A DNA stretch of 27,203 bases, taken from the NCBI GenBank assembly GCA_044356725.1, contig JBIKVS010000013.1, positions 1 through 27,203 on the forward strand, read 5' to 3'. This document shows positions 7,158 to 25,005 of this stretch, piece after piece. Under the pieces are notes generated by a model, which was not told the DNA's origin, ran no database searches, and saw only the letters and a program-made list of their open reading frames with translations. Each line of letters opens with the position of its first letter. Positions within the stretch are counted from its first letter, which is position 1. The stretch comes from Minisyncoccia bacterium. Lineage in GTDB: Bacteria; Patescibacteriota; Minisyncoccia; SW-4-49-11. The translations under genes were made by a program, and so were the position numbers.

Positions 7158-8144
7158 ATGCTGATTACATTTATCTTACTGATCTTAGGTTTATATGTTT
7201 TAATCAAAGGCTCAGACTTATTAGTGGATGGAGCTTCTGCTGTGGCTAAAAAGTTTAATGTAGCTCCTATGATTATTGGGCTTACTATTATTGCTTTTGG
7301 GACTAGTGCTCCGGAATTACTTGTCTCTATTGTATCATCCACTCAAGGAGCTAATGACTTGGCTTTGGGAAATATCTTTGGATCAAATATTGCTAACTTT
7401 TTGCTTATTTTAGGAATAACAGCTACTATTAGTCCAATCAATATACCTCATAGTACTATTTGGAAAGAAATTCCGTTCACCCTTTTAGGGGCCTTTGTAT
7501 TGACAATTCTTGGAATTCGCAATCAAATTGATAGCTTAGAGTTAGGAGCTATTAATTTAAATAGCACTGAGACTATTAATACCATTGGTATCAGTGGTGG
7601 TTTAATTTTATTGTTATTCTTTGTGATTTTTATGTATTATACCTTTAGTATTAGCAAAAACAATTCAGAGGACGAGCCTGAGATTAAACTTATGTCTATC
7701 ACACAGTCTATAGTATATATTGTGTTAGGGCTTTCTTTTTTGGCCTCTGGAAGCTATTTATTAGTAAATAATGCTATTAATATAGCCAGTCAACTAGGAT
7801 TAGCTCAAGGATTTATTGGGCTTACTATTGTCGCCCTCGGAACTAGTTTACCTGAGTTAGTCACTAGTATTGCAGCTGCTCGTAAGGGTCATTCTGAGTT
7901 AGCGGTTGGGAATGTGGTAGGATCTAATATCTTCAATATATTCTTTATCCTAGGAGTAACCAGCCTTATTAACCCAATTCCTATTACCGGTCAAAATTTG
8001 GCAGATATACTGACTCTGTTAGCTGTGACTGTATTTATGTTTATCTTAATCTTTATCTTTACCGCTAGGAGAGTTGGTAAAATTGAAGGTTATCTGATGT
8101 TGGGAGCTTATGGGTTTTATTTGTATTATATATTTATAAGGTAA
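7158..8144 (+). CDS. Calcium/sodium antiporter (YrbG/CaCA family)
   Basis: Two alpha repeats: GTSAPEL...GNIFGSNIAN and GTSLPEL...GNVVGSNIFN. Confidence 0.95.
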   Translation: MLITFILLILGLYVLIKGSDLLVDGASAVAKKFNVAPMIIGLTIIAFGTSAPELLVSIVSSTQGANDLALGNIFGSNIANFLLILGITATISPINIPHSTIWKEIPFTLLGAFVLTILGIRNQIDSLELGAINLNSTETINTIGISGGLILLLFFVIFMYYTFSISKNNSEDEPEIKLMSITQSIVYIVLGLSFLASGSYLLVNNAINIASQLGLAQGFIGLTIVALGTSLPELVTSIAAARKGHSELAVGNVVGSNIFNIFFILGVTSLINPIPITGQNLADILTLLAVTVFMFILIFIFTARRVGKIEGYLMLGAYGFYLYYIFIR

Positions 8145-8206
8145 AAGTTATTGACAAGATGAGAAATATTTTACCTACTATCTTTAGTATATATACTGTT
8201 GTATTA

Positions 8207-8315
8207 TGTCCCTCGCTGGCGAGTGGGGACCACGAAGTAGTGGGTGTGGACAAATAGTTTATTTTTTAAATCATCCTCCTCCGTCACTTCGTGACACCTC
8301 CCCCAAGGGAGGACA
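8207..8315. repeat. Inverted doublet of GC-rich double-hairpin REP-like units
   Basis: 8207-8250 and the reverse complement of 8274-8315 share TGTCC-hairpin-G-rich linker-CACGAAGT hairpin-GG.G.GGA, separated by an AT-rich spacer. Confidence 0.7.
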
Positions 8316-8359
8316 ATGTATGAAGTATAATTTGTAATGTATTCGTCATACACAAACCC

Positions 8360-8388
8360 TTGTAAATATCTAAAAAATATATTATGAT
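8360..8388 (+). promoter_or_regulatory. Candidate sigma70 promoter of speD
   Basis: TTGTAA, 17 bp spacer, TATGAT. Confidence 0.45.
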
Positions 8389-8424
8389 ATAGCGGTTGTT
8401 AAAATTTATAATATACTAAATTCT

Positions 8425-8784
8425 ATGAAAAATTTGGGTATAGAGATTGTGGGTGATCTCAAGGGTATTGATAAAGTTTTTTTAGCTAATATTGATATGG
8501 ATTTACTCCAAACTCAGATATCTGAATTAATCAAGAAATTTGGGTTTAATAAACTTGGAGATTATTATCATTCATTTGAACCTGGGATTACAGGGGCTGT
8601 GGTTCTCGCTGAATCTCATATTGCCTTTCATACTTGGCCGGAGTTTGGTTATGTGAGTTTGAATGTTTTTACTTGTAATTATACTAAGGATAATGATGAC
8701 AATGCCAAAGGGCTATTCGATGAAATTGCTAAAATCTTCCAGCCAACTGAAATTGATAAACAAATTGTAATTAGAAATCATTAG
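8425..8784 (+). CDS. speD: Pyruvoyl-dependent S-adenosylmethionine decarboxylase family proenzyme (class 1b SpeD/SpeH type)
   Basis: H.FEPG.TG.VVLAESHIAFHTWPE.G...NVFTC, with the ES self-cleavage site. Confidence 0.88.
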   Translation: MKNLGIEIVGDLKGIDKVFLANIDMDLLQTQISELIKKFGFNKLGDYYHSFEPGITGAVVLAESHIAFHTWPEFGYVSLNVFTCNYTKDNDDNAKGLFDEIAKIFQPTEIDKQIVIRNH

Positions 8785-8785
8785 A
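8746..8785 (+). repeat. Direct repeat copy 1 (speD 3' end)
   Basis: ACTGAAATTGATAAACAAATTGTAATTAGAAATCATTAGA, 38/40 identical to 10632-10671. Confidence 0.95.
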
Positions 8786-9006
8786 AGAATAAAAATTAGC
8801 CATTAATTTGATTTTATATAATCATATACACAAGATATCTTGATTATTAAAAACTTAATATCTATAACATGATATGAATATATGGTTGCTTCGACCCCAA
8901 ATTAAACTTAAAAACAACCCCTTAAAACAATCTATATGACTTAAATTAAGCTTAAACACAAAATATTCTATAGTGAATATAAACTTAATTTTAATAGATC
9001 ATAGTT

Positions 9007-9075
9007 TTTAAAGTGAATTTAAAGTGAACAAATTAAACATTTGATATTGCATATATTTTTATTATATATTATAGT
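9007..9075 (+). promoter_or_regulatory. Fasciclin gene promoter with upstream 11-bp tandem repeat
   Basis: TTTAAAGTGAA x2 (9007-9028). TTGCAT (9047-9052), 17 bp spacer, TATAGT (9070-9075). Confidence 0.55.
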
Positions 9076-9107
9076 AAAAATGTATTAATAATTAACATAT
9101 TAAAAAT

Positions 9108-9746
9108 ATGAAGTCATTAAAGCAAAGTATTGCCCTGTCATTATTAGTTTTTGCTCTTGTGTTAAGCCCTATTTATGCAAGTGCTGCTACAGACACAATA
9201 ACTGGTTTGTTAAACAAAACAAGTGATTTATCTACTCTTAAAACTCTTGTTGGTTTAGCAAGTTTAGATGGAGCCTTAGATAGCACTTCGTCTCAGTACA
9301 CTGTATTTGCACCCAAAGATTCTGCTTTTGCAGCTTTACCTAAATCAGTTACTGATGCACTAGTAAAACCTGAGAATAAAACTGTTCTTGCTGGAATTCT
9401 AAAATATCATGTTATTCCTAGTAAAATTCTTTCTACAGACCTAGCTGCAGATCAAACTGTAACTACTTTAAACGGAGATACCTTGGTTGTAAAAAAAGCA
9501 GACGGTAAAGTTACTATAACAGATAAAACTGGTGGTGTTTCAACTGTAACTACAGCTGATGTAGAAGCTACAAATGGAGTAGTTCATATTGTAGATAAGG
9601 TTCTTCTTGATAAAGCATATGATTTCTCTACTCCAACAAAATTACATGATACAGGTATAAACTTAATTGTTCCTGCGGTTGTAAGTGGTTTATTACTTCT
9701 AGTTGCAGTATTTGTATATACTAGAAAGTCTTCTTCAAAAATATAA
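9108..9746 (+). CDS. Fasciclin (FAS1) domain surface protein with signal peptide and LPxTG-like sorting signal
   Basis: Signal peptide ending ASA-A. FAS1 H1 (YTVFAPKDSAF), ILKYHVI and H2 (ATNGVVHIVDKVL). C-terminal LHDTG, TM helix and RKSSSK tail. Confidence 0.93.
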   Translation: MKSLKQSIALSLLVFALVLSPIYASAATDTITGLLNKTSDLSTLKTLVGLASLDGALDSTSSQYTVFAPKDSAFAALPKSVTDALVKPENKTVLAGILKYHVIPSKILSTDLAADQTVTTLNGDTLVVKKADGKVTITDKTGGVSTVTTADVEATNGVVHIVDKVLLDKAYDFSTPTKLHDTGINLIVPAVVSGLLLLVAVFVYTRKSSSKI

Positions 9747-9761
9747 TTTTGTATCTATAAA

Positions 9762-9805
9762 AATTAAAAAGAGGTTTTTATTAATACTAAAACCTCTTTT
9801 TAATT
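9762..9805. terminator. 17-bp-stem hairpin between fasciclin and sortase (terminator/attenuator)
   Basis: AATTAAAAAGAGGTTTT ... AAAACCTCTTTTTAATT. Confidence 0.7.
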
Positions 9806-9829
9806 AAAATTTTAACCTAAATAATAATT

Positions 9830-10468
9830 ATGAGGCCCAGATTTCTAAAAATTGCAAATACATTTTTATTAATACTTATTATTATAACTACTGTATATAT
9901 TATATCATCTCCATTTTTAATTAAATTATTTAAAAATGATGTTTCTAACACCTATTCTCAAGAATCTAAGGTGTCAAAAGAAATATCTAATACTGTCATT
10001 AAAGATCCTGTAATTTTAAACCCTAATCAAAACAAATCCAAAGAGCGACCTCCAGCTGATAAAAATAATGCTGATCCAAATTTTAATATAACTATGTCAT
10101 CTCTTAATTTAAATTCTAAGCTTTTCACCAGTACCAGCAGTAAAGATTTAAATAAAGGCATTTGGCATAGGAGTAGTTCTGGGAACCCTCTTTCTGGAGG
10201 AAATATGGTTATAACTGCTCACAGATTTTTGTATACTGGAAATAATAATACTTTTTATAATCTACCTAATATAAAATTAGACGATACTATAGTAATAACA
10301 TGGGAAGGTAAACAGTATGACTATAAGGTAACAAATTTATTTGAGGTAACACCTGATGCAGTTGAAATTGAAGCTCCTACAGAAGAACATATACTAACTC
10401 TTTACACTTGTACGCCTCTTTGGACTAGTGCTAAACGTTTTGTAGTACAAGCTAAGCCTATACTTTAA
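9830..10468 (+). CDS. Sortase (class D/E-like)
   Basis: N-terminal TM anchor and catalytic triad: GNMVITAHR (His), LTLYTCTP (Cys), KRFVV (Arg). Confidence 0.93.
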   Translation: MRPRFLKIANTFLLILIIITTVYIISSPFLIKLFKNDVSNTYSQESKVSKEISNTVIKDPVILNPNQNKSKERPPADKNNADPNFNITMSSLNLNSKLFTSTSSKDLNKGIWHRSSSGNPLSGGNMVITAHRFLYTGNNNTFYNLPNIKLDDTIVITWEGKQYDYKVTNLFEVTPDAVEIEAPTEEHILTLYTCTPLWTSAKRFVVQAKPIL

Positions 10469-10474
10469 TATTTT

Positions 10475-10570
10475 ATGAATATGTCTGAATTTAAAAAAAC
10501 TATTATATTAAGTTTTATCCTATTGATTCTAATAGCTACTGTATTAATTACTCAGTACTCTCCATTATAA
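10475..10570 (+). CDS. Unannotated 31-aa single-TM peptide (MNMSEFKKTIILSFILLILIATVLITQYSPL)
   Basis: Starts 6 bp after the sortase stop on the same strand. KK followed by an ~18-residue hydrophobic stretch. Confidence 0.5.
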   Translation: MNMSEFKKTIILSFILLILIATVLITQYSPL

Positions 10571-10631
10571 TTATATTGCTAATTGTGCTTATCTAAATTT
10601 AAATTAGTACCTTTAAATTTTGGTTTTAGCT

Positions 10632-10671
10632 ACTAAAATTGATAAGCAAATTGTAATTAGAAATCATTAGA
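10632..10671 (+). repeat. Direct repeat copy 2 (orphaned speD 3' end, TKIDKQIVIRNH*)
   Basis: ACTAAAATTGATAAGCAAATTGTAATTAGAAATCATTAGA, 38/40 identical to 8746-8785. Confidence 0.95.
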
Positions 10672-10816
10672 GTAAAAGACCCCGCCTTAAAAGGCAGGGC
10701 TTTTACTTTATATAACTATATTTTACTTCGCTCGCAAGCTCTTCGCTTGCTTTAGCTATCGGAAAATTTGGACAGTCATCCCCGCCCTTAAAAGGGTGGG
10801 GTTTTCTGTCTTTTTA
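10672..10816 (-). mobile_element. Non-autonomous IS200/IS605-family miniature element (PATE/MITE-like, 145 bp)
   Basis: Minus strand left end: TTAT|TAAAAAGACAG-AAAA-CCCCACCCTTTTAAGGGCGGGG. Right end: AAAG-CCCTGCCTTTTAAGGCGGGG-TCTT-TTAC|. The guide/cleavage pairs AAAA/TTAT and AAAG/TTAC follow the IS608 rule. Confidence 0.78.
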
Positions 10817-10854
10817 ATAAAAAATCCCCCGAGCGACGGTGCTGGAGGAGGGGA
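10816..10854 (-). terminator. Probable terminator of the minus-strand orphan gene
   Basis: Imperfect GC stem (TCCCC/CCTCC-AGC...GCT-CGGGGGA) followed by TTTTTTATT on the minus strand. Confidence 0.55.
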
Positions 10855-10875
10855 GAGGTGTGTTTGGACGATGGT

Positions 10876-11097
10876 TTACTTCACCTGAGCTGGTGCTGAA
10901 GGGAGTTGAGGGAGAGATTGATATCTCTGTAAAACTACTCCTGTGAGGACAATACCTCCTAGTGCTAGGAGGATCCAAACAATACCCCATCTACCCCAGA
11001 CAGGGTAATATGAGTAGGAGATTGGAATCTGAACAGGATCTCCAGCAACACCCCTAACATTGGGTAGTTGAACCTGAGAGTGATGCGTGATTTTCAC
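10876..11097 (-). CDS. Small orphan single-TM protein (73 aa from GTG 11097)
   Basis: Own promoter and terminator, GC-richer than flanks, TM helix WGIVWILLALGGIVLTGVVL. The ORF-track TTG start at 11154 is the -35 box. Confidence 0.6.
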   Translation of the reverse strand: MKITHHSQVQLPNVRGVAGDPVQIPISYSYYPVWGRWGIVWILLALGGIVLTGVVLQRYQSLPQLPSAPAQVK

Positions 11098-11125
11098 TGA
11101 AATAAACGAACAGATTAACATAACA

Positions 11126-11154
11126 TATATACCACAAAAATACATTTTTGTCAA
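11126..11154 (-). promoter_or_regulatory. Near-consensus sigma70 promoter with extended -10
   Basis: TTGACA (11154-11149), 17 bp spacer, TG-N-TATATA (11131-11126). Confidence 0.7.
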
Positions 11155-11237
11155 GTCAGAATAACATAAAATACACCCTTATCTTGCATATTTTAGTGAA
11201 AAGTTTATACTAAAGCTATAATTATATAATTCAAAAT

Positions 11238-12386
11238 ATGAATATTTGGAATATTATTCGCAGTCTGAAGGCTAGGGTTTTATCTATTAATCTTCCCTCT
11301 TTGATTAGTATTTATATTGATAAGAGTGCTATTTTGCATAATTTACAAGAATATAGACAAGCCTATCCTGAGTTAGAATTTGCCCCAGTGCTAAAAAGCA
11401 ATGCCTATGGTCATAGTTTGGTATCTGTAGCTAGGATTTTAGATTCTCAAAAACTCCCCTTTGTAATCGTAGATTCTTATTATGAGGCGAGATTACTGCG
11501 GGATAATAATATTAAATCCCCTATTTTGATTATTGGTTATGTAGAGCCTAATATTATATTACAGTCTAGACTTTCTAAAATTAGCTTTTGTATTACAAGC
11601 CTAGAGCAAGTAAGACTGTTAGCTCACAGTAATAATCCTATCCAATTACATCTAAAAATTGATACTGGTATGCATAGACAGGGTATTATGATCTCTGAGC
11701 TAGATGAAGTGATAAAAATTATCAAACAAAATCCTAATCTGAATCTTCAAGGCATCGCCTCGCATCTGGCTGATGCGGATAATTCTAAAAGCAAATCTGT
11801 TAAACAACAATTAAAACAATGGAAGCAAATTCAAGAGAGATTAACTCAAGCATTCCCAAATATTACTTATACTCACATCTCAGCTACAGCTGGAGTGCTT
11901 CATACTAAATCCAATAGTACTCATAATCTTGCTCGATTAGGACTAGGGCTATATGGTATTAGTATAATAAATAATCCTAAAATTAACTTAAGACCGGTTC
12001 TGAGTATGCAGACTATTATTAGTGGAGTAAAGTCTATTAAAAAAGGTGATTCTGTTGGCTATAATAATACTTTTATTGCCCCTCGAGATATTCTAATAGC
12101 TACTATACCTGCTGGCTATGCTGAGGGAGTAGATCGCAGATTATCTAATATAGGACTAGTTGAAGTAAATGGTATTCTCTGCCCAATTATTGGTCGAGTT
12201 AGTATGAATATTACAACAATTGATATCTCTGATATTCCTCAAGTAAAGTTAGGTGATACAGTCACTATAATTAGCAGTGATAACTCCTCCCCTATTTCAA
12301 TTAATAATATTGCCAAGACTTGCAGTACTATTCCTTATGAAATTTTAGCTCATATACCTGCTCATCTAAGGCGAGTATTGAGATGA
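11238..12386 (+). CDS. alr: Alanine racemase
   Basis: PLP-lysine motif VLKSNAYGH, HLKIDTGMHRQG, SHLADAD, GYAEG (catalytic Tyr), GRVSMN and TIPYEIL. Confidence 0.96.
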   Translation: MNIWNIIRSLKARVLSINLPSLISIYIDKSAILHNLQEYRQAYPELEFAPVLKSNAYGHSLVSVARILDSQKLPFVIVDSYYEARLLRDNNIKSPILIIGYVEPNIILQSRLSKISFCITSLEQVRLLAHSNNPIQLHLKIDTGMHRQGIMISELDEVIKIIKQNPNLNLQGIASHLADADNSKSKSVKQQLKQWKQIQERLTQAFPNITYTHISATAGVLHTKSNSTHNLARLGLGLYGISIINNPKINLRPVLSMQTIISGVKSIKKGDSVGYNNTFIAPRDILIATIPAGYAEGVDRRLSNIGLVEVNGILCPIIGRVSMNITTIDISDIPQVKLGDTVTIISSDNSSPISINNIAKTCSTIPYEILAHIPAHLRRVLR

Positions 12387-12397
12387 CCTTGAGATAT

Positions 12398-12772
12398 TTA
12401 GGGTTTAAGATTTAACTCTTTAATCATTAGTGGATTTAGCAGAGACTCTTTGATACATTTATCTATAAATTCTTGTAATAGATTTTTGCCTCTATTAGTT
12501 AAGCTATATATTTTCCAATTTGGACCTGAGGGATTGTGTTTATCCTCATAGGTGACTAGCCCTGACTCATATAATTTTCGCAAAGCCCGATATAAGCTCA
12601 TTCTATCTATTTGAAAGTTAGATTGACTATACTGAGACATAAATTCCTCCATTGCCTCTACTTTTTTTGGGTTGTCTCTGAGAGAGATTAATATCCAAAA
12701 GGTGGACATACTTTTCATAAAAACCTGCTTCCAGCCATTGAATAATTGTTGTTCTTGCTTAGATAATTCCAT
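12398..12772 (-). CDS. PadR-family winged-helix transcriptional regulator
   Basis: SLYRALRKL...GLV and GP..KIYSLT..GK.LL. Confidence 0.85.
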   Translation of the reverse strand: MELSKQEQQLFNGWKQVFMKSMSTFWILISLRDNPKKVEAMEEFMSQYSQSNFQIDRMSLYRALRKLYESGLVTYEDKHNPSGPNWKIYSLTNRGKNLLQEFIDKCIKESLLNPLMIKELNLKP

Positions 12773-12782
12773 AAGTATTGGA

Positions 12783-13688
12783 CTAATTAAAGAATGCTTC
12801 TGCCTTTTTAGCTGTCATAGCTTTTTCTAAGAATACTTTTTGGAATTCTTCAGGGTTATTACCATTTTTATACCAAACATATAGTGATGTGGAGACTACA
12901 ATAGAAGCTAGTACTCTATAGAATAATATAGCTATTATGGATAACATAAAGGATAAAAAAGCAAATACTATATATCCATCCCAAAATACAGTAATCCAAT
13001 TACCTTCTAATCCTTTCATACTAGTGTTAGTTATAGCAGTATTAACATCTAGACTATAAAAAATCAAAGTCCCGATTACAAATATAGCTATTAAATAAAG
13101 TACTAAGAACAGTATGGCAACTAAAGCTAAATATGATTGAGAAAATATAGAATATCCAGCTAATTTACCAAACATATCTTTATTATCTTGTAGAGTATGC
13201 TTGATAGATTTGTCAGGATTATTAATAATTGTAGCTGGGATAAGAGATGTAACGGCTGGGACTACCAAACTATAAGCTCCACCGAATATACCTGGAATCA
13301 AAGCTCCTATGGTATTAGCTCCTAAACTAAATCCAGTATAAGCTACCACCTTTGACACTGAAATTCCAGCTTTAACTGTCTTGTCCCAATATTGAAGCAG
13401 GGTTTTGGTAATCACAAATTCAAAATAATAACTAATAAAAACTCCCCATATAATAGAAAGTATGGCAGCAATCATAAGTACTAACGGAAAAACTCCATTC
13501 CAATTTCCAGCAAAGAAATCATTAAGAGCTACAGCAGAAGATTGAGATAGGATAGCTCCCCACAATATAATAATTGGAGCAATCATTATAATAAAAAATA
13601 ATATGCCTAAAAACACAATACTAGGATTATCTTTAATAGTTGTAATAGTAGCTTTAGCAATCAAGCGAACCTTAGAAAAATTGTTCAT
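12783..13688 (-). CDS. Multi-pass membrane protein of unknown function (loosely DUF6159-like)
   Basis: About 5-6 hydrophobic segments; 10-bp gap to PadR suggests co-transcription. The family guess rests on N-terminal resemblance only. Confidence 0.7.
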   Translation of the reverse strand: MNNFSKVRLIAKATITTIKDNPSIVFLGILFFIIMIAPIIILWGAILSQSSAVALNDFFAGNWNGVFPLVLMIAAILSIIWGVFISYYFEFVITKTLLQYWDKTVKAGISVSKVVAYTGFSLGANTIGALIPGIFGGAYSLVVPAVTSLIPATIINNPDKSIKHTLQDNKDMFGKLAGYSIFSQSYLALVAILFLVLYLIAIFVIGTLIFYSLDVNTAITNTSMKGLEGNWITVFWDGYIVFAFLSFMLSIIAILFYRVLASIVVSTSLYVWYKNGNNPEEFQKVFLEKAMTAKKAEAFFN

Positions 13689-18265: not shown

Positions 18266-19996
18266 TTAAGTAGTTTGTTGACTTTGCCAAATTTGAGCAT
18301 ATTCAATGGATCTTTTTATCATTTGAGAATGTGTACCGGTAGCTAATAATTCTCCTTCCATAATCAAAATAATTTGATCATAATCTTGAATTGGCTCAAT
18401 TTTTTGGGTAATAGATATTAAAGTTAAATAAGGATATTCTTGAGATAATGAAGCAACTATCTCTTTTTCAGTCTTAATATCTACTCTAGCTGTGAAATCA
18501 TCTAATAATAGGATTTTTGGACTTCTAACTAGTGCTCTAGCTAACATTATTCTCTGCTTTTGTCCTCCAGATAAATTACTTCCTCGCTCGCTAATCTTTG
18601 TATTAATTCCTTCTGGAAGAGAGTTTACTATTTCGGATACATTAGAAGTTATCAGTGCTTTTTGATAGTCTAATTCTTCCACTTTAGTATTAAATAAAAT
18701 GTTTTCTCGAAGAGTGGTATTGAATAAAATACTTTCTTGAAATACCAATCCCATAGTTTTAAATATATAATCTGGATTCCATTTTTGAAGAGGAATATCA
18801 TCTATTAGAATTTGGCCAGAGCTTGGCTGAATTAAACCGGTAATTAGTGATAATATAAGGCTTTTACCTGATCCTGTTGGACCTATAATAGCATTTTTAG
18901 TTTGAGGATGAATTTCAAAAGAAACTTCTTTTAATAAAGTTTTACCTTTTACTTCATAAGATACTTTGTCAAAAGTAATTTTACCTTTCACTGATTTAGT
19001 AATTAAATTTTTAGCATCCGATTTTATTTGTTCGGGGGCATTTAATACTTGCTGAATTCTAGACAAAGACACAAGTCCTCTAGAAATAAAATTACTAACA
19101 AATCCTAAAATAAAAATTGGGGTAATCAAAAGGTTAAAATACGAAATAAAAGCACTAAATTCTCCCAAAGTTAAGTCAGCTACCATCACTTGTCTACCTC
19201 CAAACCAAATAATAGTTACAATAGCAAAGTTAGATACCAAATTAATTGCTGGTATTAAACTGGAAAATAAATTAATAATTTTCAAACCAACCTCTCTTCC
19301 TTCCTGATTAATCTTGTCAAACTTAATATTTTCATATTTTTGAGCATTAAGAACTCTAATCAACATTGCCCCTAAGACACTTTCGTTGATTACCTTATTG
19401 ATTTTAGATAATATTTTTTGAGATGACCTAAATAGTTTAGATATATTTTTAAAGATAAAGGCAAAAACAGCTATAATAATTGGCAAGGAGATAATCGCAA
19501 TCAAAGCCAGCCTAACATTAATGGAAAATAATAAAATAACACTACCAATCAGAATAATCAAGGCAGAGAATATACTAGCAAAACCTTGTGAGATAATGTC
19601 TTTTACTTGTTCTACATCGGAGGTTATATTAGTGAATAATTCTGAGGAATCTTGTTCATTAATAAAGCTGATGGGCTGGGATAATATTTTTTTAATCAAA
19701 TCGTCTCTAAAGTCTCTAGCTACATTTTCAGCTACATATATTCCTATAACAGTTTGTACTAATGAGATTAATAATACAAATATTGATATTGCCGATAATA
19801 ACCATATATCTGGCGCTAATTTATAAATACTACCATTTTGACTAAGATTATCAATGCTGCCACCCAATATTCTAGGAATTAACAGATTAGCCCCATTAGA
19901 CAAAAATATAAATATAGTTAAAAGTATAGACCAACCTATATATGGTTTTATAAATTTTAAGTCAATCTTAGATGTATTGGTTTTAGATTTCTGCAT
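18266..19996 (-). CDS. Heterodimeric ABC exporter subunit A (TMD+NBD)
   Basis: GPTGSGKS, canonical LSGGQ, degenerate Walker B LLLDD and switch His replaced by Gln (ITQK). This is the classic TM287/288-type asymmetry. Confidence 0.94.
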   Translation of the reverse strand: MQKSKTNTSKIDLKFIKPYIGWSILLTIFIFLSNGANLLIPRILGGSIDNLSQNGSIYKLAPDIWLLSAISIFVLLISLVQTVIGIYVAENVARDFRDDLIKKILSQPISFINEQDSSELFTNITSDVEQVKDIISQGFASIFSALIILIGSVILLFSINVRLALIAIISLPIIIAVFAFIFKNISKLFRSSQKILSKINKVINESVLGAMLIRVLNAQKYENIKFDKINQEGREVGLKIINLFSSLIPAINLVSNFAIVTIIWFGGRQVMVADLTLGEFSAFISYFNLLITPIFILGFVSNFISRGLVSLSRIQQVLNAPEQIKSDAKNLITKSVKGKITFDKVSYEVKGKTLLKEVSFEIHPQTKNAIIGPTGSGKSLILSLITGLIQPSSGQILIDDIPLQKWNPDYIFKTMGLVFQESILFNTTLRENILFNTKVEELDYQKALITSNVSEIVNSLPEGINTKISERGSNLSGGQKQRIMLARALVRSPKILLLDDFTARVDIKTEKEIVASLSQEYPYLTLISITQKIEPIQDYDQIILIMEGELLATGTHSQMIKRSIEYAQIWQSQQTT

Positions 19997-20024
19997 TATT
20001 TTGGTGGGTTAAGAAAATGCAGAA

Positions 20025-21680
20025 TCAACTTCTATCTATAAATTCTTCTCGAGAACAAGCATCTGGCTTAGCAATATGCTCTGGAATCATAGCCTGTAAT
20101 AGTGATTCACTATTAGCCCCCAATTTGGCTATATCATAAGCTAATTGTCTGTAATTAATATGCCCCCCTGGTCTTACTCTAAGTTGTGTCATATAGCTAA
20201 TTTCTTTAGGAGAAGCATGAAAAAAAGAGGTAAAAATATGGGCAAAAGGTAGTAATTGAACATACATATATTGAGGAAACCATTCATATTCTGAACTTAT
20301 ATTGATGAAATTTTGTAGTTTTTGATAGTATTCTTGTAAATCTTGTTCAAACTCTTGTCTAATTGCTTGTAATTCTGGGTTATCTGTTAGATAAAGTGGT
20401 AAAGTATACCCTGTACATAATGTTTCCTTGTATTGATTTGTACTAAAAGCTGGAATATACCTCCCCCAAGCTCGATGACGATTCAAATCTCTTAGTTCAG
20501 AATTGGAACAAGTAAGCACAAAACTATGGGTGTTGACTCGGAATAAATTCCCCATTTGTTTATGATGATTAAAGTCTTTAAATACAATTTTAGAAATTTG
20601 AATTTGATGTTCCTGAGTTAAATTAGATATAAATTCTAAGATAGATTTAATACTGGCATTTGGGTATAAAGTTATAATGTTTTGTAACAAAATCTTAGCT
20701 CCAGCACTGAGATTAGTGTCTAATAATTCTGCATCTACTTTGTGGTATCTGATAATTTTTGACGTTTCTAAATTCTGCTCTATTTGTAATTCAGTCTGTA
20801 AATATTGTTTTAAAAATAATAGATTTTGATTTGTAATTGTATCTGCCTCAGTGTGACGAATTAAATCTGGGGCTTCTGGAGTATAGCCAAGTTTCTGAGC
20901 TTCAATATCGTCTGGAGCAAATAGTATTTCCAATTGCTCAGCTAAACAAACTAAATTATATTCATTGGAAGCCTTGAATACTGAGATTAATCTTGCCCAT
21001 TCGCGAGCGGAGGTAATATAGGCTAGAGAAGTTTTATTCATTAAACCTGAAGGTAAAAAATATCTAGTGGAGTCAAAAACTCTAGCTGTCAGAGCTCCTG
21101 TTTCGGATTTATTATCCTTATCTATCTCATAAACTTTAATATATTCTGTGGTTAATTTTTCTTGCCAATATTTATATTTTTCTAAAGAATATTGTTGTAA
21201 ATCAAGCAATGCCTGGTTAATTTTATCATAATCTTCTGAATTAGAATCTACACCTAAACTATCTAACCCGAGAGGTTTGCTATTACCAAAATCCTGATAT
21301 CTAGTAGATCTCTGTTGTCCCCCTCCAACACTAGTTTCATTAAAGAATATTGTAGAATAGTGGTCTGGTATCTGCTCAATATAAGCAAATAATTGTGCCA
21401 TATCTGCTACGGAGGAATGTCCGTAATTTCTAAAAATATTAGCTAATTTTTCATTAGCATTACTACCAGCTTGCCTGATTTCTTGAAATAACTCTTCAGC
21501 CGAGAGAGCTGAGCGTGAGAATCTAGCTCCTGCAAAGGCCATAATAGAGGCGGTTTGTTTCCCTGAATTTGGTAGAGCGGTTCTAACAGTGTATCCGGTT
21601 CTAGTATCTGTGACTGAGACTATAACTAAATCTGTTTTATCTGCCTCTGAGATACTAAATTGAAAGTGTGATTGATTCAT
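20025..21680 (-). CDS. thyX: FAD-dependent thymidylate synthase, tandem-domain ThyX
   Basis: ARFSRS, YGHSSVADMA, QQRSTRYQDF and FDSTRYFLP in domain 1; RDLNRHR and LRVRPGGHINYR in domain 2. Adjacent to dcd. Confidence 0.88.
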   Translation of the reverse strand: MNQSHFQFSISEADKTDLVIVSVTDTRTGYTVRTALPNSGKQTASIMAFAGARFSRSALSAEELFQEIRQAGSNANEKLANIFRNYGHSSVADMAQLFAYIEQIPDHYSTIFFNETSVGGGQQRSTRYQDFGNSKPLGLDSLGVDSNSEDYDKINQALLDLQQYSLEKYKYWQEKLTTEYIKVYEIDKDNKSETGALTARVFDSTRYFLPSGLMNKTSLAYITSAREWARLISVFKASNEYNLVCLAEQLEILFAPDDIEAQKLGYTPEAPDLIRHTEADTITNQNLLFLKQYLQTELQIEQNLETSKIIRYHKVDAELLDTNLSAGAKILLQNIITLYPNASIKSILEFISNLTQEHQIQISKIVFKDFNHHKQMGNLFRVNTHSFVLTCSNSELRDLNRHRAWGRYIPAFSTNQYKETLCTGYTLPLYLTDNPELQAIRQEFEQDLQEYYQKLQNFINISSEYEWFPQYMYVQLLPFAHIFTSFFHASPKEISYMTQLRVRPGGHINYRQLAYDIAKLGANSESLLQAMIPEHIAKPDACSREEFIDRS

Positions 21681-23922: not shown

Positions 23923-25005
23923 TTAATGTTTATCTTTTTTGATTAATACTGAGGTAATAATTTCATCTAATTCTCCAGACAAAACCTTATCCACATCAGT
24001 AGTTTCAAAACCACTTCGCTGGTCTTTGACCAATTTATACGGATTCATTACATAAGATCGAATATGATTACCCCATGAAATTGACACATCCTCAGTATGA
24101 GATTGCTGTTCTTGCTTGTGCTCCGATTGTTTTAACTCCCATAGTTTAGACTTTAGAATATTCATAGCCAGAGTTTTGTTCTGCAACTGAGACCGCTCGG
24201 TCTGAATTGCTACTACAATACCAGTTGGAATATGAGTAATCCTCACAGCAGAATCTGTAGTATTTACACTCTGTCCACCGGCACCCTGTGAGCGATATAC
24301 ATCCACCTTAATATCATTTGGATTAATTATAATATCACTAGAGCTAATCTCATCCATTTCTGGCAAGACCTGTACCATCACAAATGAAGTATGTCTCAAA
24401 CCAGCTGCATTAAATGGAGAAACTCGCACTAATCGATGCACTCCTCGCTCTTGGCGAAAAATTCCATAAGCATATTGACCTTTTATCTGTAATAAAGAAC
24501 GCTTGATACCAGCCTCTTGGCCTTGTATATATTCTATCACATCTATCTCAAAATTTCGAGACCTTGCATAAGACATATACATCTTAGTGATAATCTCAGC
24601 AAAATCCTGAGCATCCACACCCCCAGCTCCAGCTTGAATAAACAACAAAGCATTACCCGAGTCATACTCTTCACTAAAAAACATTTCTTGCCAATAAGTA
24701 TTTACTTGTTTTTCTAAAGTTTCAAGTTCAGATTCAAAATCTGTATCTTGTTCTAGAATTAACTGCTCCACAAAATCTATAGTGTCTGGAATATTCTCTA
24801 AATCCTGCAGTTTTTTTTGAGAGTGAGATAATTTTTTTAATATAATCTGAGCTTGCTCTGGATTATCCCATAGATTAGGATTTTCTGATTGATTACTATA
24901 AGATTGAATCTCCTGTTTGAGCTTCTCTATATCAGTTCCTAGCTTTATTTGACTCCACTTTTCTTTAATTTCACTTAGAATATGTTGAGAGTGTTCTAAT
25001 GTCAT
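23923..25005 (-). CDS. prfB: Peptide chain release factor 2 (no programmed frameshift)
   Basis: SPF recognition motif (LVRVSPFN), GAGGQ, and conserved prfB-ftsEX synteny; a single uninterrupted ORF. Confidence 0.97.
   Translation of the reverse strand: MTLEHSQHILSEIKEKWSQIKLGTDIEKLKQEIQSYSNQSENPNLWDNPEQAQIILKKLSHSQKKLQDLENIPDTIDFVEQLILEQDTDFESELETLEKQVNTYWQEMFFSEEYDSGNALLFIQAGAGGVDAQDFAEIITKMYMSYARSRNFEIDVIEYIQGQEAGIKRSLLQIKGQYAYGIFRQERGVHRLVRVSPFNAAGLRHTSFVMVQVLPEMDEISSSDIIINPNDIKVDVYRSQGAGGQSVNTTDSAVRITHIPTGIVVAIQTERSQLQNKTLAMNILKSKLWELKQSEHKQEQQSHTEDVSISWGNHIRSYVMNPYKLVKDQRSGFETTDVDKVLSGELDEIITSVLIKKDKH

Follow-up and report, generated by a model that had tools for sequence, protein, structure and literature searches.

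A fasciclin–sortase islet bracketed by a duplicated speD tail in a lake Patescibacteria genome, possibly gained through homology-driven recombination

The locus described here, a fasciclin–sortase islet held between two copies of the 3' tail of speD in a ~0.9-Mb lake Patescibacteria genome of the Paceibacteria type, can be set beside several described systems. It lies in a 27,203-nt stretch of DNA (the window), which is the whole of contig C14 of the genome G000, a metagenome-type assembly of 897 kb in 20 contigs with 33% GC and many dispersed repeats. Among strain-variable segments below 5 kb, Touzain et al. 2010 (PMC2884548) report that 10-18% are flanked by direct repeats and that membrane and surface genes are over-represented, and most of the flanking repeats, at less than 30 bp, are read there as deletion substrates. 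Work on Acinetobacter, Pseudomonas stutzeri and Streptococcus pneumoniae that is cited in the same article concerns homology-facilitated illegitimate recombination (HFIR) and Campbell-type insertion-duplication in transformation, and the threshold for RecA-dependent recombination in E. coli is given there as ~30 bp. Additionally, we compared the islet with the cis-mobilizable element (CIME) as defined in PMC5704250, an integrase-less element concept.

The islet resembles the segments of Touzain et al. in being smaller than 5 kb, strain-variable, flanked by direct repeats and loaded with surface cargo, but its repeat is the tail of a gene and another cargo occupies the same slot in another strain. 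With HFIR and insertion-duplication, as summarized in PMC2884548, it shares a short homologous anchor, the lack of an element enzyme, a host RecA plus ComEC and a possible duplication of the anchor; however, its anchor is very short (40-51 nt, 25 of them perfect), and the case is known here from sequence alone. Like a CIME in the sense of PMC5704250, its direct repeats contain the 3' end of a target gene that is itself intact, and no integrase lies inside, whereas G000 offers no cognate integrative and conjugative element (ICE), integrative and mobilizable element (IME) or integrase, the islet contains no decayed integrase or transfer genes, and the target is a protein-coding gene. As part of the reading that we favour, positions 8797-10631 are most likely a strain-lineage-specific islet between speD and its terminator.

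The comparison set for the genus comprised G000 and 11 other genomes (12 in total), with G013 representing another genus. The closest relative is G012, with 88% nucleotide identity over an 11.6-kb core and 96% amino acid identity in speD. We also used contigs of four metagenome runs, including X1 (a possible source run), X18 and X20, from which rare variants drop out. The features of the locus, in the coordinates of the window, are as follows (TM, transmembrane; ORF, open reading frame).

8425-8784, plus strand: speD, S-adenosylmethionine decarboxylase proenzyme, 119 aa, intact (PF02675, 4.5e-21; orthologues at 72-96% aa in 9 same-genus genomes)
8746-8785, plus strand: repeat copy 1, made up of the final 12 sense codons of speD with its stop and 1 further nt (40/40 to G012)
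8786-8796, plus strand: native post-stop sequence of 11 nt, AGAATAAAAAT (the G012 alignment extends through 8796)
8797-9069, plus strand: AT-rich spacer, 22-27% GC, in the insert and outside the conserved cassette (homology to G006 starts only at 9070)
9070-10574, plus strand: conserved three-gene cassette made of 38 promoter-proximal nt, fasciclin, sortase and small TM ORF (79.8% nucleotide identity over 1517 nt to G006)
9108-9746, plus strand: fasciclin (FAS1) surface protein, 212 aa, with signal peptide and C-terminal sorting signal (PF02469, 1.6e-32)
9762-9805, no strand assigned: inverted repeat in the fasciclin-sortase gap, with 17-nt arms that are 100% complementary and a 10-nt loop; possible attenuator or terminator
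9830-10468, plus strand: sortase, 212 aa, with N-terminal TM anchor (PF04203, 4.5e-23, 81.8 bits against a cut-off of 26.6)
10475-10570, plus strand: single-TM ORF of 31 aa, no Pfam hit (conserved in the G006 and G008 cassettes, missing behind the sortase of G013)
10632-10671, plus strand: repeat copy 2, 38/40, left over from a speD tail and no longer coding (the islet-bearing strain of X20 has G at 10635)

A first-pass annotation, made from the letters alone, had described a 40-bp duplication of the speD 3' end around a fasciclin gene, a sortase gene and a small TM ORF, and both the duplication and this content were borne out, the latter by Pfam hits and ORFs. A repeat search of the window returned the 40-nt direct repeat at 8746-8785 and 10632-10671 with 38/40 matches (95% identity) and a spacing of 1886 nt; the mismatches fall at repeat positions 4 (G/A) and 15 (A/G), leaving a longest exact block of 25 nt. 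In a seed-and-extend count it was the only pair in the window with at least 38/40 matches, while none of 30 first-order Markov resamples held any such pair, so the repeat is not due to chance. The 40-mer occurs exactly twice in the 897-kb genome, with no copy beyond these two, and a degenerate 30-nt pattern of the tail is present as a single copy in each of six other genomes of the genus and twice only in G000. The arrangement is also carried by independent contigs. One X1 contig of 2414 nt covers 8287-10700 with 0 differences, is unbranched and has a depth of 9.55 against 8.3-9.4 in the flanks; an X18 contig spans the left junction (8751-8975, 0 differences); and a 1930-nt X20 contig from another study, at depth 51, matches 8761-10671 plus 19 nt with 43 differences and 2 gaps and bridges both junctions. 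With contigs from three runs reading across the junctions, an assembly artefact is ruled out.

The site without the islet is conserved in the relatives, and the polarity of the event is that of an insertion. We found speD in 9 of the 11 other genomes of the genus; the query missed it in G004 (95% complete) and G008 (93% complete). In all nine (10 loci, two of them in G002) speD is directly followed by alr at a spacing of 319-569 nt, compared with 2456 nt in G000.

11238-12386, plus strand: alr, alanine racemase, which in all relatives is the gene to the right of speD (PF01168, PF00842)

In the closest relative, G012, the 40-mer is identical to copy 1, and fasciclin and sortase are found nowhere in the genome. 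The empty-site contigs of X20 agree with the window through 8796 and continue with the CCCCC stem of the terminator. Because the native match reaches 8796 both in G012 and in these empty sites, the insertion point is 8796|8797, 12 nt past the speD stop, and because this match runs on past copy 1 the original duplication was possibly up to ~51 nt long; at the end of copy 2, where the native post-stop stretch would correspond, a 152-nt element sits instead. With the degenerate 30-nt tail pattern we recovered six further speD-tail loci on Joint Genome Institute (JGI) metagenome contigs, L063 and five others, and 5 of the 6 are empty sites. The insertion proposed by the first-pass annotation is thus matched by empty speD-alr sites in 9/9 genomes with speD and in most of these contigs, and the different cargo at the same position that it had suggested looking for is present in L063. 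There, an 85-nt repeat with 89% identity, made of the last ~36 nt of speD and the terminator, flanks an insert of ~262 nt with a 59-aa TM ORF on the minus strand and its own promoter-like region. Copy 2 of L063 and copy 2 of G000 are identical at 35/36 positions and have the AAG variant in common. A 93-nt contig of X20 carries the L063-type junction at a depth of ~195, and together with L063 it indicates that other lake populations have a different cargo at this position.

The cargo combines one putative surface protein with one sortase and a conserved 31-aa membrane peptide. The fasciclin protein ends in KLHDTG, 21 hydrophobic residues and RKSSSKI, and the combination of a signal peptide with L[HQ][DS]TG, a hydrophobic segment and a basic tail was seen in 4/4 fasciclin homologues. 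In a permissive sorting-signal scan of 1354 G000 frames of at least 80 aa, it was the sole convincing candidate. Among the matches listed for fasciclin relatives (80 loci), three are at 68% or more, and the rest, at 54% or less, come from unrelated phyla. The sortase shows TAHRF, LTLYTC (TLxTC-type) and AKRF motifs in all four homologues, which we take to be the His, Cys and Arg signatures; it scores above the cut-off of TIGR01076 (58 bits) and below the NCBIfam cut-offs for classes C, D and E (75, 64 and 61 bits against 160, 140 and 160). PF04203 is matched in only 3 of the 12 genomes of the genus (G000, G006 and G008), once in each and always by the cassette sortase, which means that the cassette brings the only sortase of its genome. 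These observations support the view that the cassette would be a self-sufficient module of a substrate and its own anchoring enzyme, as the first-pass annotation had put it with the words 'adhesin plus its own anchoring enzyme'; the module agrees with the sole sortase and the sole convincing sorting-signal ORF, while adhesion itself we infer. The sortase is predicted to attach the fasciclin protein covalently to the envelope, where the latter may have an adhesive role. Gram-positive bacteria have dedicated sortases that are independent of the housekeeping enzyme and are paired with a single adjacent substrate. The cassette is similar in that its sortase adjoins the only protein with a matching C-terminal sorting signal, but differs in falling below the class C, D and E cut-offs, in an L[HQ][DS]TG signal rather than LPXTG or LAXTG, and in its FAS1 cargo. 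Among the papers listed by literature searches, fasciclin and sortase together gave a single, unrelated review, and sortase combined with Candidate Phyla Radiation (CPR) and fasciclin gave no description of such a module.

Around the cassette, the insert holds sequence that is more restricted. The spacer has no homologue in the 11 other genomes of the genus, where 8786-9107 gave merely AT-rich matches of 22-55 nt, and is ~95% identical in the X20 islet contig; 10575-10631 is likewise unique and outside the cassette, and nucleotide homology between G000 and G006 in this region is confined to 9070-10574. Some low-depth X18 contigs match the islet exactly but part from it at 8912 and 9882, and another, identical over 9046-9257, has different sequence in front, which suggests structural variants in the spacer and the sortase 5' region in another lake sample.

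The same cassette was found at other loci. In G006, it lies between a gene resembling aldehyde-deformylating oxygenase (ADO) on the minus strand and a gene resembling cyclopropane-fatty-acid (CFA) synthase, 1.4 kb upstream of speD, and in the sister species G011 the gap between these two genes holds a different ORF of ~100 aa. The cassette of G008, on a 2.5-kb contig, has a tRNA, the gene for L33 and a Fur-like gene as neighbours. G013, which belongs to another genus, carries the fasciclin and sortase genes beside ychF, and there the small ORF is missing. No flanking repeats surround the cassette at its other loci. Between G000 and G006 the cassette is 80% identical compared with 74-78% for the core, and between G000 and G008 it is ~75% identical in the alignable parts compared with 81% for the core. 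This incongruence with the core points to probable exchange of the cassette within the genus. The cassette called 'portable' in the first-pass annotation therefore does occupy three loci in three species of the genus, with G013 in addition, and the islet itself has no recombinase. As a separate observation, the stretch upstream of speD in G006 (C11, 4245-10040 of locus L045) encodes desaturase-like, ADO-like ferritin-fold and CFA-synthase-like methyltransferase genes that are common to G011.

We then compared the islet with known types of mobile element. Neither the ORFs nor Pfam revealed a recombinase in it. The genome encodes one tyrosine recombinase, an Xer-like protein (C19:991-2052) that scores well short of the equivalog cut-offs for XerC and XerD and reaches 85 bits with the integron-integrase model against a cut-off of 265, and serine recombinases number 0. 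The first-pass annotation had called the islet integrase-free and considered mobilization in trans; the former stood, while for the latter no cognate integrase came to light, just the single Xer-like enzyme. The host has RecA (412 bits) and ComEC (181 bits). A repeat search found no inverted repeats at the ends of the islet or the cassette, and with this lack of terminal inverted repeats and a duplication of at least 40 nt rather than 2-15 bp the islet does not conform to a transposon, insertion sequence (IS) or miniature inverted-repeat transposable element (MITE). An integron cassette is not indicated either, with no imperfect palindrome at 10571-10631, no attC and no IntI. Of the hallmarks of integrative elements and CIMEs, the repeat covering the speD 3' end is there and the cognate integrase is not; of those of homologous recombination or HFIR, a speD-tail anchor with host RecA and ComEC is present. 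By eye, the 40-mer has no evident dyad, such as the dif-like dyad of an element that exploits host Xer at the chromosomal dif site (IMEX), and no likeness to tRNA T-loop sites. Neither a deletion joint 8785/10672 nor a circle was seen in the contigs of the four runs, and contigs drop rare variants; the sole joint listed, from 10115 to 10812 with a side of 21, is short-sided and unrelated to the deletion. Several other ideas were rejected. For a viral carrier, the 40-mer pattern gave 0 matches in viral_contigs, and of 23 sortase pattern matches none was confirmed. The islet had no plasmid match that would indicate a plasmid carrier. A third degenerate copy of the speD tail at the left end of the insert (AGCCA...TTGAT...AATCAT) was abandoned after 1914, 1174 and 398 of 2000 shuffles scored as high. 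Elsewhere in the window, 7.7 kb from the islet, an IS30-family transposase (NF033563, 195 bits) lies at the contig start (80-1048).

The two mismatches between the copies bear on the age and source of copy 2. The islet contig of X20 differs from G000 at ~5% of the spacer positions and ~1.4% of the coding positions. Position 10635, which is repeat position 4 and the first mismatch of copy 2, is G in the X20 islet strain. Islet-bearing strains thus vary at this site, which shows copy 2 to be non-coding DNA subject to drift. At most one mismatch was then present in the ancestral islet, and the two mismatches require no special mechanism. The first-pass annotation had explained them by homology-facilitated illegitimate recombination; drift takes the place of this explanation, as 10635 varies between islet-bearing strains. 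Directly before copy 2, AGCT at 10628-10631 matches an Ala codon of speD in G009, G005, G007, G003 and several metagenome contigs, whereas the own speD of G000 and that of G012 have CCA at this position. Over the 44 nt of copy 2 and these 4 nt, there are 3 differences from the nearest foreign alleles compared with 5 from copy 1. The A at repeat position 4 agrees with the alleles of other species, yet is G in the X20 islet strain. These 4 nt hint that copy 2 may have arrived with the cargo from another lineage.

Next to copy 2 lies a dispersed repeat that overlaps its last base.

10671-10822, plus strand: dispersed three-hairpin repeat of 152 nt, outside the islet (fold z = -6.3; no Rfam match)

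Further copies in G000 are found at C5:3985-4136 and across C19:16634-end and C20:1-99, with 97-99% identity, and every G000 copy begins 1-2 nt after a stop codon. G004 contains at least 7 pieces at contig ends, and in one of its copies unit positions 36 and 48 lie 434 nt apart, so that a longer form exists there. Downstream of the element the native sequence resumes (AAAATCCCCC...), and the islet contig of X20 has unlike letters after 10671. As the element is absent from the empty site of G012 and from the X20 islet strain, it represents a later, separate insertion. It was also dismissed as the agent of the duplication: the C5 and C19/C20 copies have no duplicated gene tail, and it is missing after copy 2 in X20. 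An Rfam scan of 8100-11300 gave nothing near gathering scores. Two other places in G000 (C19:15332-15545 and C9:69392-69609) hold similar mini-inserts of ~108 nt within 53-57-nt duplications that end in a tRNA T-loop, at a spacing of 161 nt. We set these tRNA-tail cases aside as instances of the same system, since their sequence does not resemble the ends of the islet and their repeats stop in the T-loop. A 36-nt repeat with a spacing of 162 occurs at C17:4668-4865 inside coding-looking sequence, and at C6:18522-18739 and 19886-20575 common blocks of 138 nt upstream (92%) and 38 nt downstream (100%) enclose different interiors in a cassette-like manner. Upstream of speD, the stretch 8200-8320 of the window forms GC-rich hairpins, and its depth in lake runs exceeds that of the flanks by a factor of 15-35 (329 compared with 9.5 in X1). 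Rfam gives this stretch a weak whalefall-1-like match (RF01762, E 0.62), and one joint points to copies in inverted or tandem order.

The region to the right of the terminator also varies. Between the speD terminator and alr, orf92 (10876-11154, minus strand) is a fast-evolving single-TM ORF with a near-consensus extended -10 promoter; this uncertain ORF had no Pfam match and no protein-level homologue in the loci of the relatives. ORFs at its position in L063 and G006 have the common C-terminus ...VDPT...VHK[DQ], and the G000 version is unalignable with them at the protein level. After alr, a PadR-like regulator and a 301-aa membrane ORF (window 12398-13688) are present in G000, G009, G010, G003, L063 and L065, and both are missing from this position in G012 (C24, ~24330-24916). 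In G003 (C3, 3731-4510 of locus L020), alr appears in three separate pieces (residues 1-62, 49-111 and 228-382) and may be frameshifted or partly deleted. A mosaic import of alr together with the islet was considered and rejected: alr is 82% identical to G012 at the amino acid level compared with 93-96% for the left-flank genes, but it is the faster gene in every pairwise comparison, and its divergence is thus not evidence for such an import.

How the islet came to lie behind speD can be approached from these observations with graded confidence. We favour a gain by host homology-driven recombination on imported DNA that carried a segment of the speD tail beside the cargo, a route that we infer and regard as having about an even chance of being correct. 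The imported DNA would already have held a short speD-tail segment adjoining the cargo. If that DNA was circular or concatemeric, one crossover may have brought it in (Campbell-type); alternatively, it may have paired by homology on the right and been joined illegitimately immediately after the speD stop, as in HFIR. Either route would keep speD intact and leave a second, non-coding copy of the tail beyond the cargo. Afterwards, copy 2 would have drifted by two substitutions, and the 152-nt hairpin repeat would have landed beside it. Several points weigh against this account. The homology, with 25 nt perfect and at most ~51 nt originally, is near or below the ~30-bp RecA threshold given in PMC2884548, so such recombination should be rare. 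No donor with the cargo directly beside a speD tail was found, save the islet-bearing strains themselves, and the first formation of the cargo-tail junction is therefore left unexplained. In two different cargos (the G000 type and the L063 or X20 type) copy 2 begins at nearly the same position, to within a few nt, which is easier to reconcile with a site-specific process or an ancestral slot common to both than with independent illegitimate events. The divergence between G000 and G006 is equal for the cassette (79.8%) and speD (79.4%), which allows an old vertical presence followed by relocation. Lastly, the argument from AGCT concerns 4 nt only, and 3 versus 5 differences over 44 nt are not decisive.

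Alternatively, the 40-mers could be true attL and attR of an integrase-less, CIME-like or IMEX-like element that was integrated, and possibly excised, in trans by a recombinase encoded elsewhere, either the Xer-like tyrosine recombinase of G000, the one such enzyme available (C19:991-2052), or that of a transient element. We consider such integration rather unlikely. The repeat does span the 3' end of a conserved gene that is kept intact, a second cargo sits at the same place with a repeat start within a few nt, and the 53-57-nt tRNA-tail duplications around the ~108-nt mini-inserts imply that att-type integration does occur in this genome. But the only recombinase is far below the XerC, XerD and integron-integrase cut-offs and no serine recombinase accompanies it, the repeat lengths are unequal between the cargos (40-51 nt compared with 85 nt), the 40-mer has neither evident dyad symmetry nor T-loop likeness, the other cassette loci have no flanking repeats, and the four runs, as contigs only, gave no excision joint. 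A rearrangement in situ would dispense with transfer altogether: a cassette old in the genus and at first upstream of speD, as it still is in G006, then a local duplication and a deletion that put a complete speD in front of the cassette with just the tail of the original one behind it, and later losses in most species. It would account for speD sequence downstream of the cassette in both genomes, as the full gene 1.4 kb away in G006 and as the 40-nt tail in G000, for their equal identity in cassette and speD, and for L063 as a tandem duplication that starts in the speD tail at this very locus. We nevertheless hold it to be improbable, because it takes several steps and at least 8 independent losses against one gain, the sister G012 at 88% is without the cassette anywhere, no homology between G000 and G006 outside 9070-10574 remains as a common flank, the G008 cassette is incongruent with the core, and a comparison with the sister G011 makes the G006 cassette, too, an insertion or replacement.

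A different question is whether the repeats serve a population-level switch that turns adhesion on and off by frequent deletion between them. Direct repeats would in principle permit a precise deletion that spares speD, and empty and occupied contigs co-occur in X20 and branch exactly at 8796|8797. The empty-site contigs, however, show 2-3 differences in 36-39 nt and may therefore come from other species of the genus; X1 shows a single unbranched contig across speD and the islet at a depth equal to the flanks; and 25 perfect nt at a distance of 1.9 kb predict a very low deletion rate, given what PMC2884548 reports, all of which makes a switch very improbable. Finally, a second repeat and cassette wrongly joined to the speD contig by assembly or binning could be imagined in a 20-contig metagenome-type assembly with many dispersed repeats, a concern that the first-pass annotation had voiced. 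Contigs from three studies that bridge the junctions, one of them with 0 differences in 2414 nt, and the even depth settle it and leave an artefact with next to no probability.

In itself, the proposed gain of the islet by recombination on imported DNA would be a fairly ordinary genomic islet event of a known kind. What is new are the resolved junctions, the evidence of drift in copy 2, the second cargo at the site, and an entire sortase pathway with its single FAS1 substrate travelling as one package. The sortase pathway is optional in the genus, as a 1.5-kb package with a single substrate that occurs in 3 of the 12 species at three loci without a mobile-element enzyme of its own. A wider possibility, which we put forward tentatively and think doubtful, is that the ~40-nt speD tail and its terminator form a reusable docking slot in lake Paceibacteria, which unrelated promoter-bearing cassettes (the fasciclin–sortase module in G000, a gene for a small membrane protein in L063 and X20) would enter and leave by way of this tail without an enzyme of their own. 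If so, the docking slot would represent a general, undescribed 'tail-anchored' exchange of cassettes in ultra-small bacteria, driven by natural transformation and RecA or by a single Xer-like recombinase. An attached life on other cells is generally assumed for ultra-small Patescibacteria, so the gain and loss of their surface proteins matters for host range.

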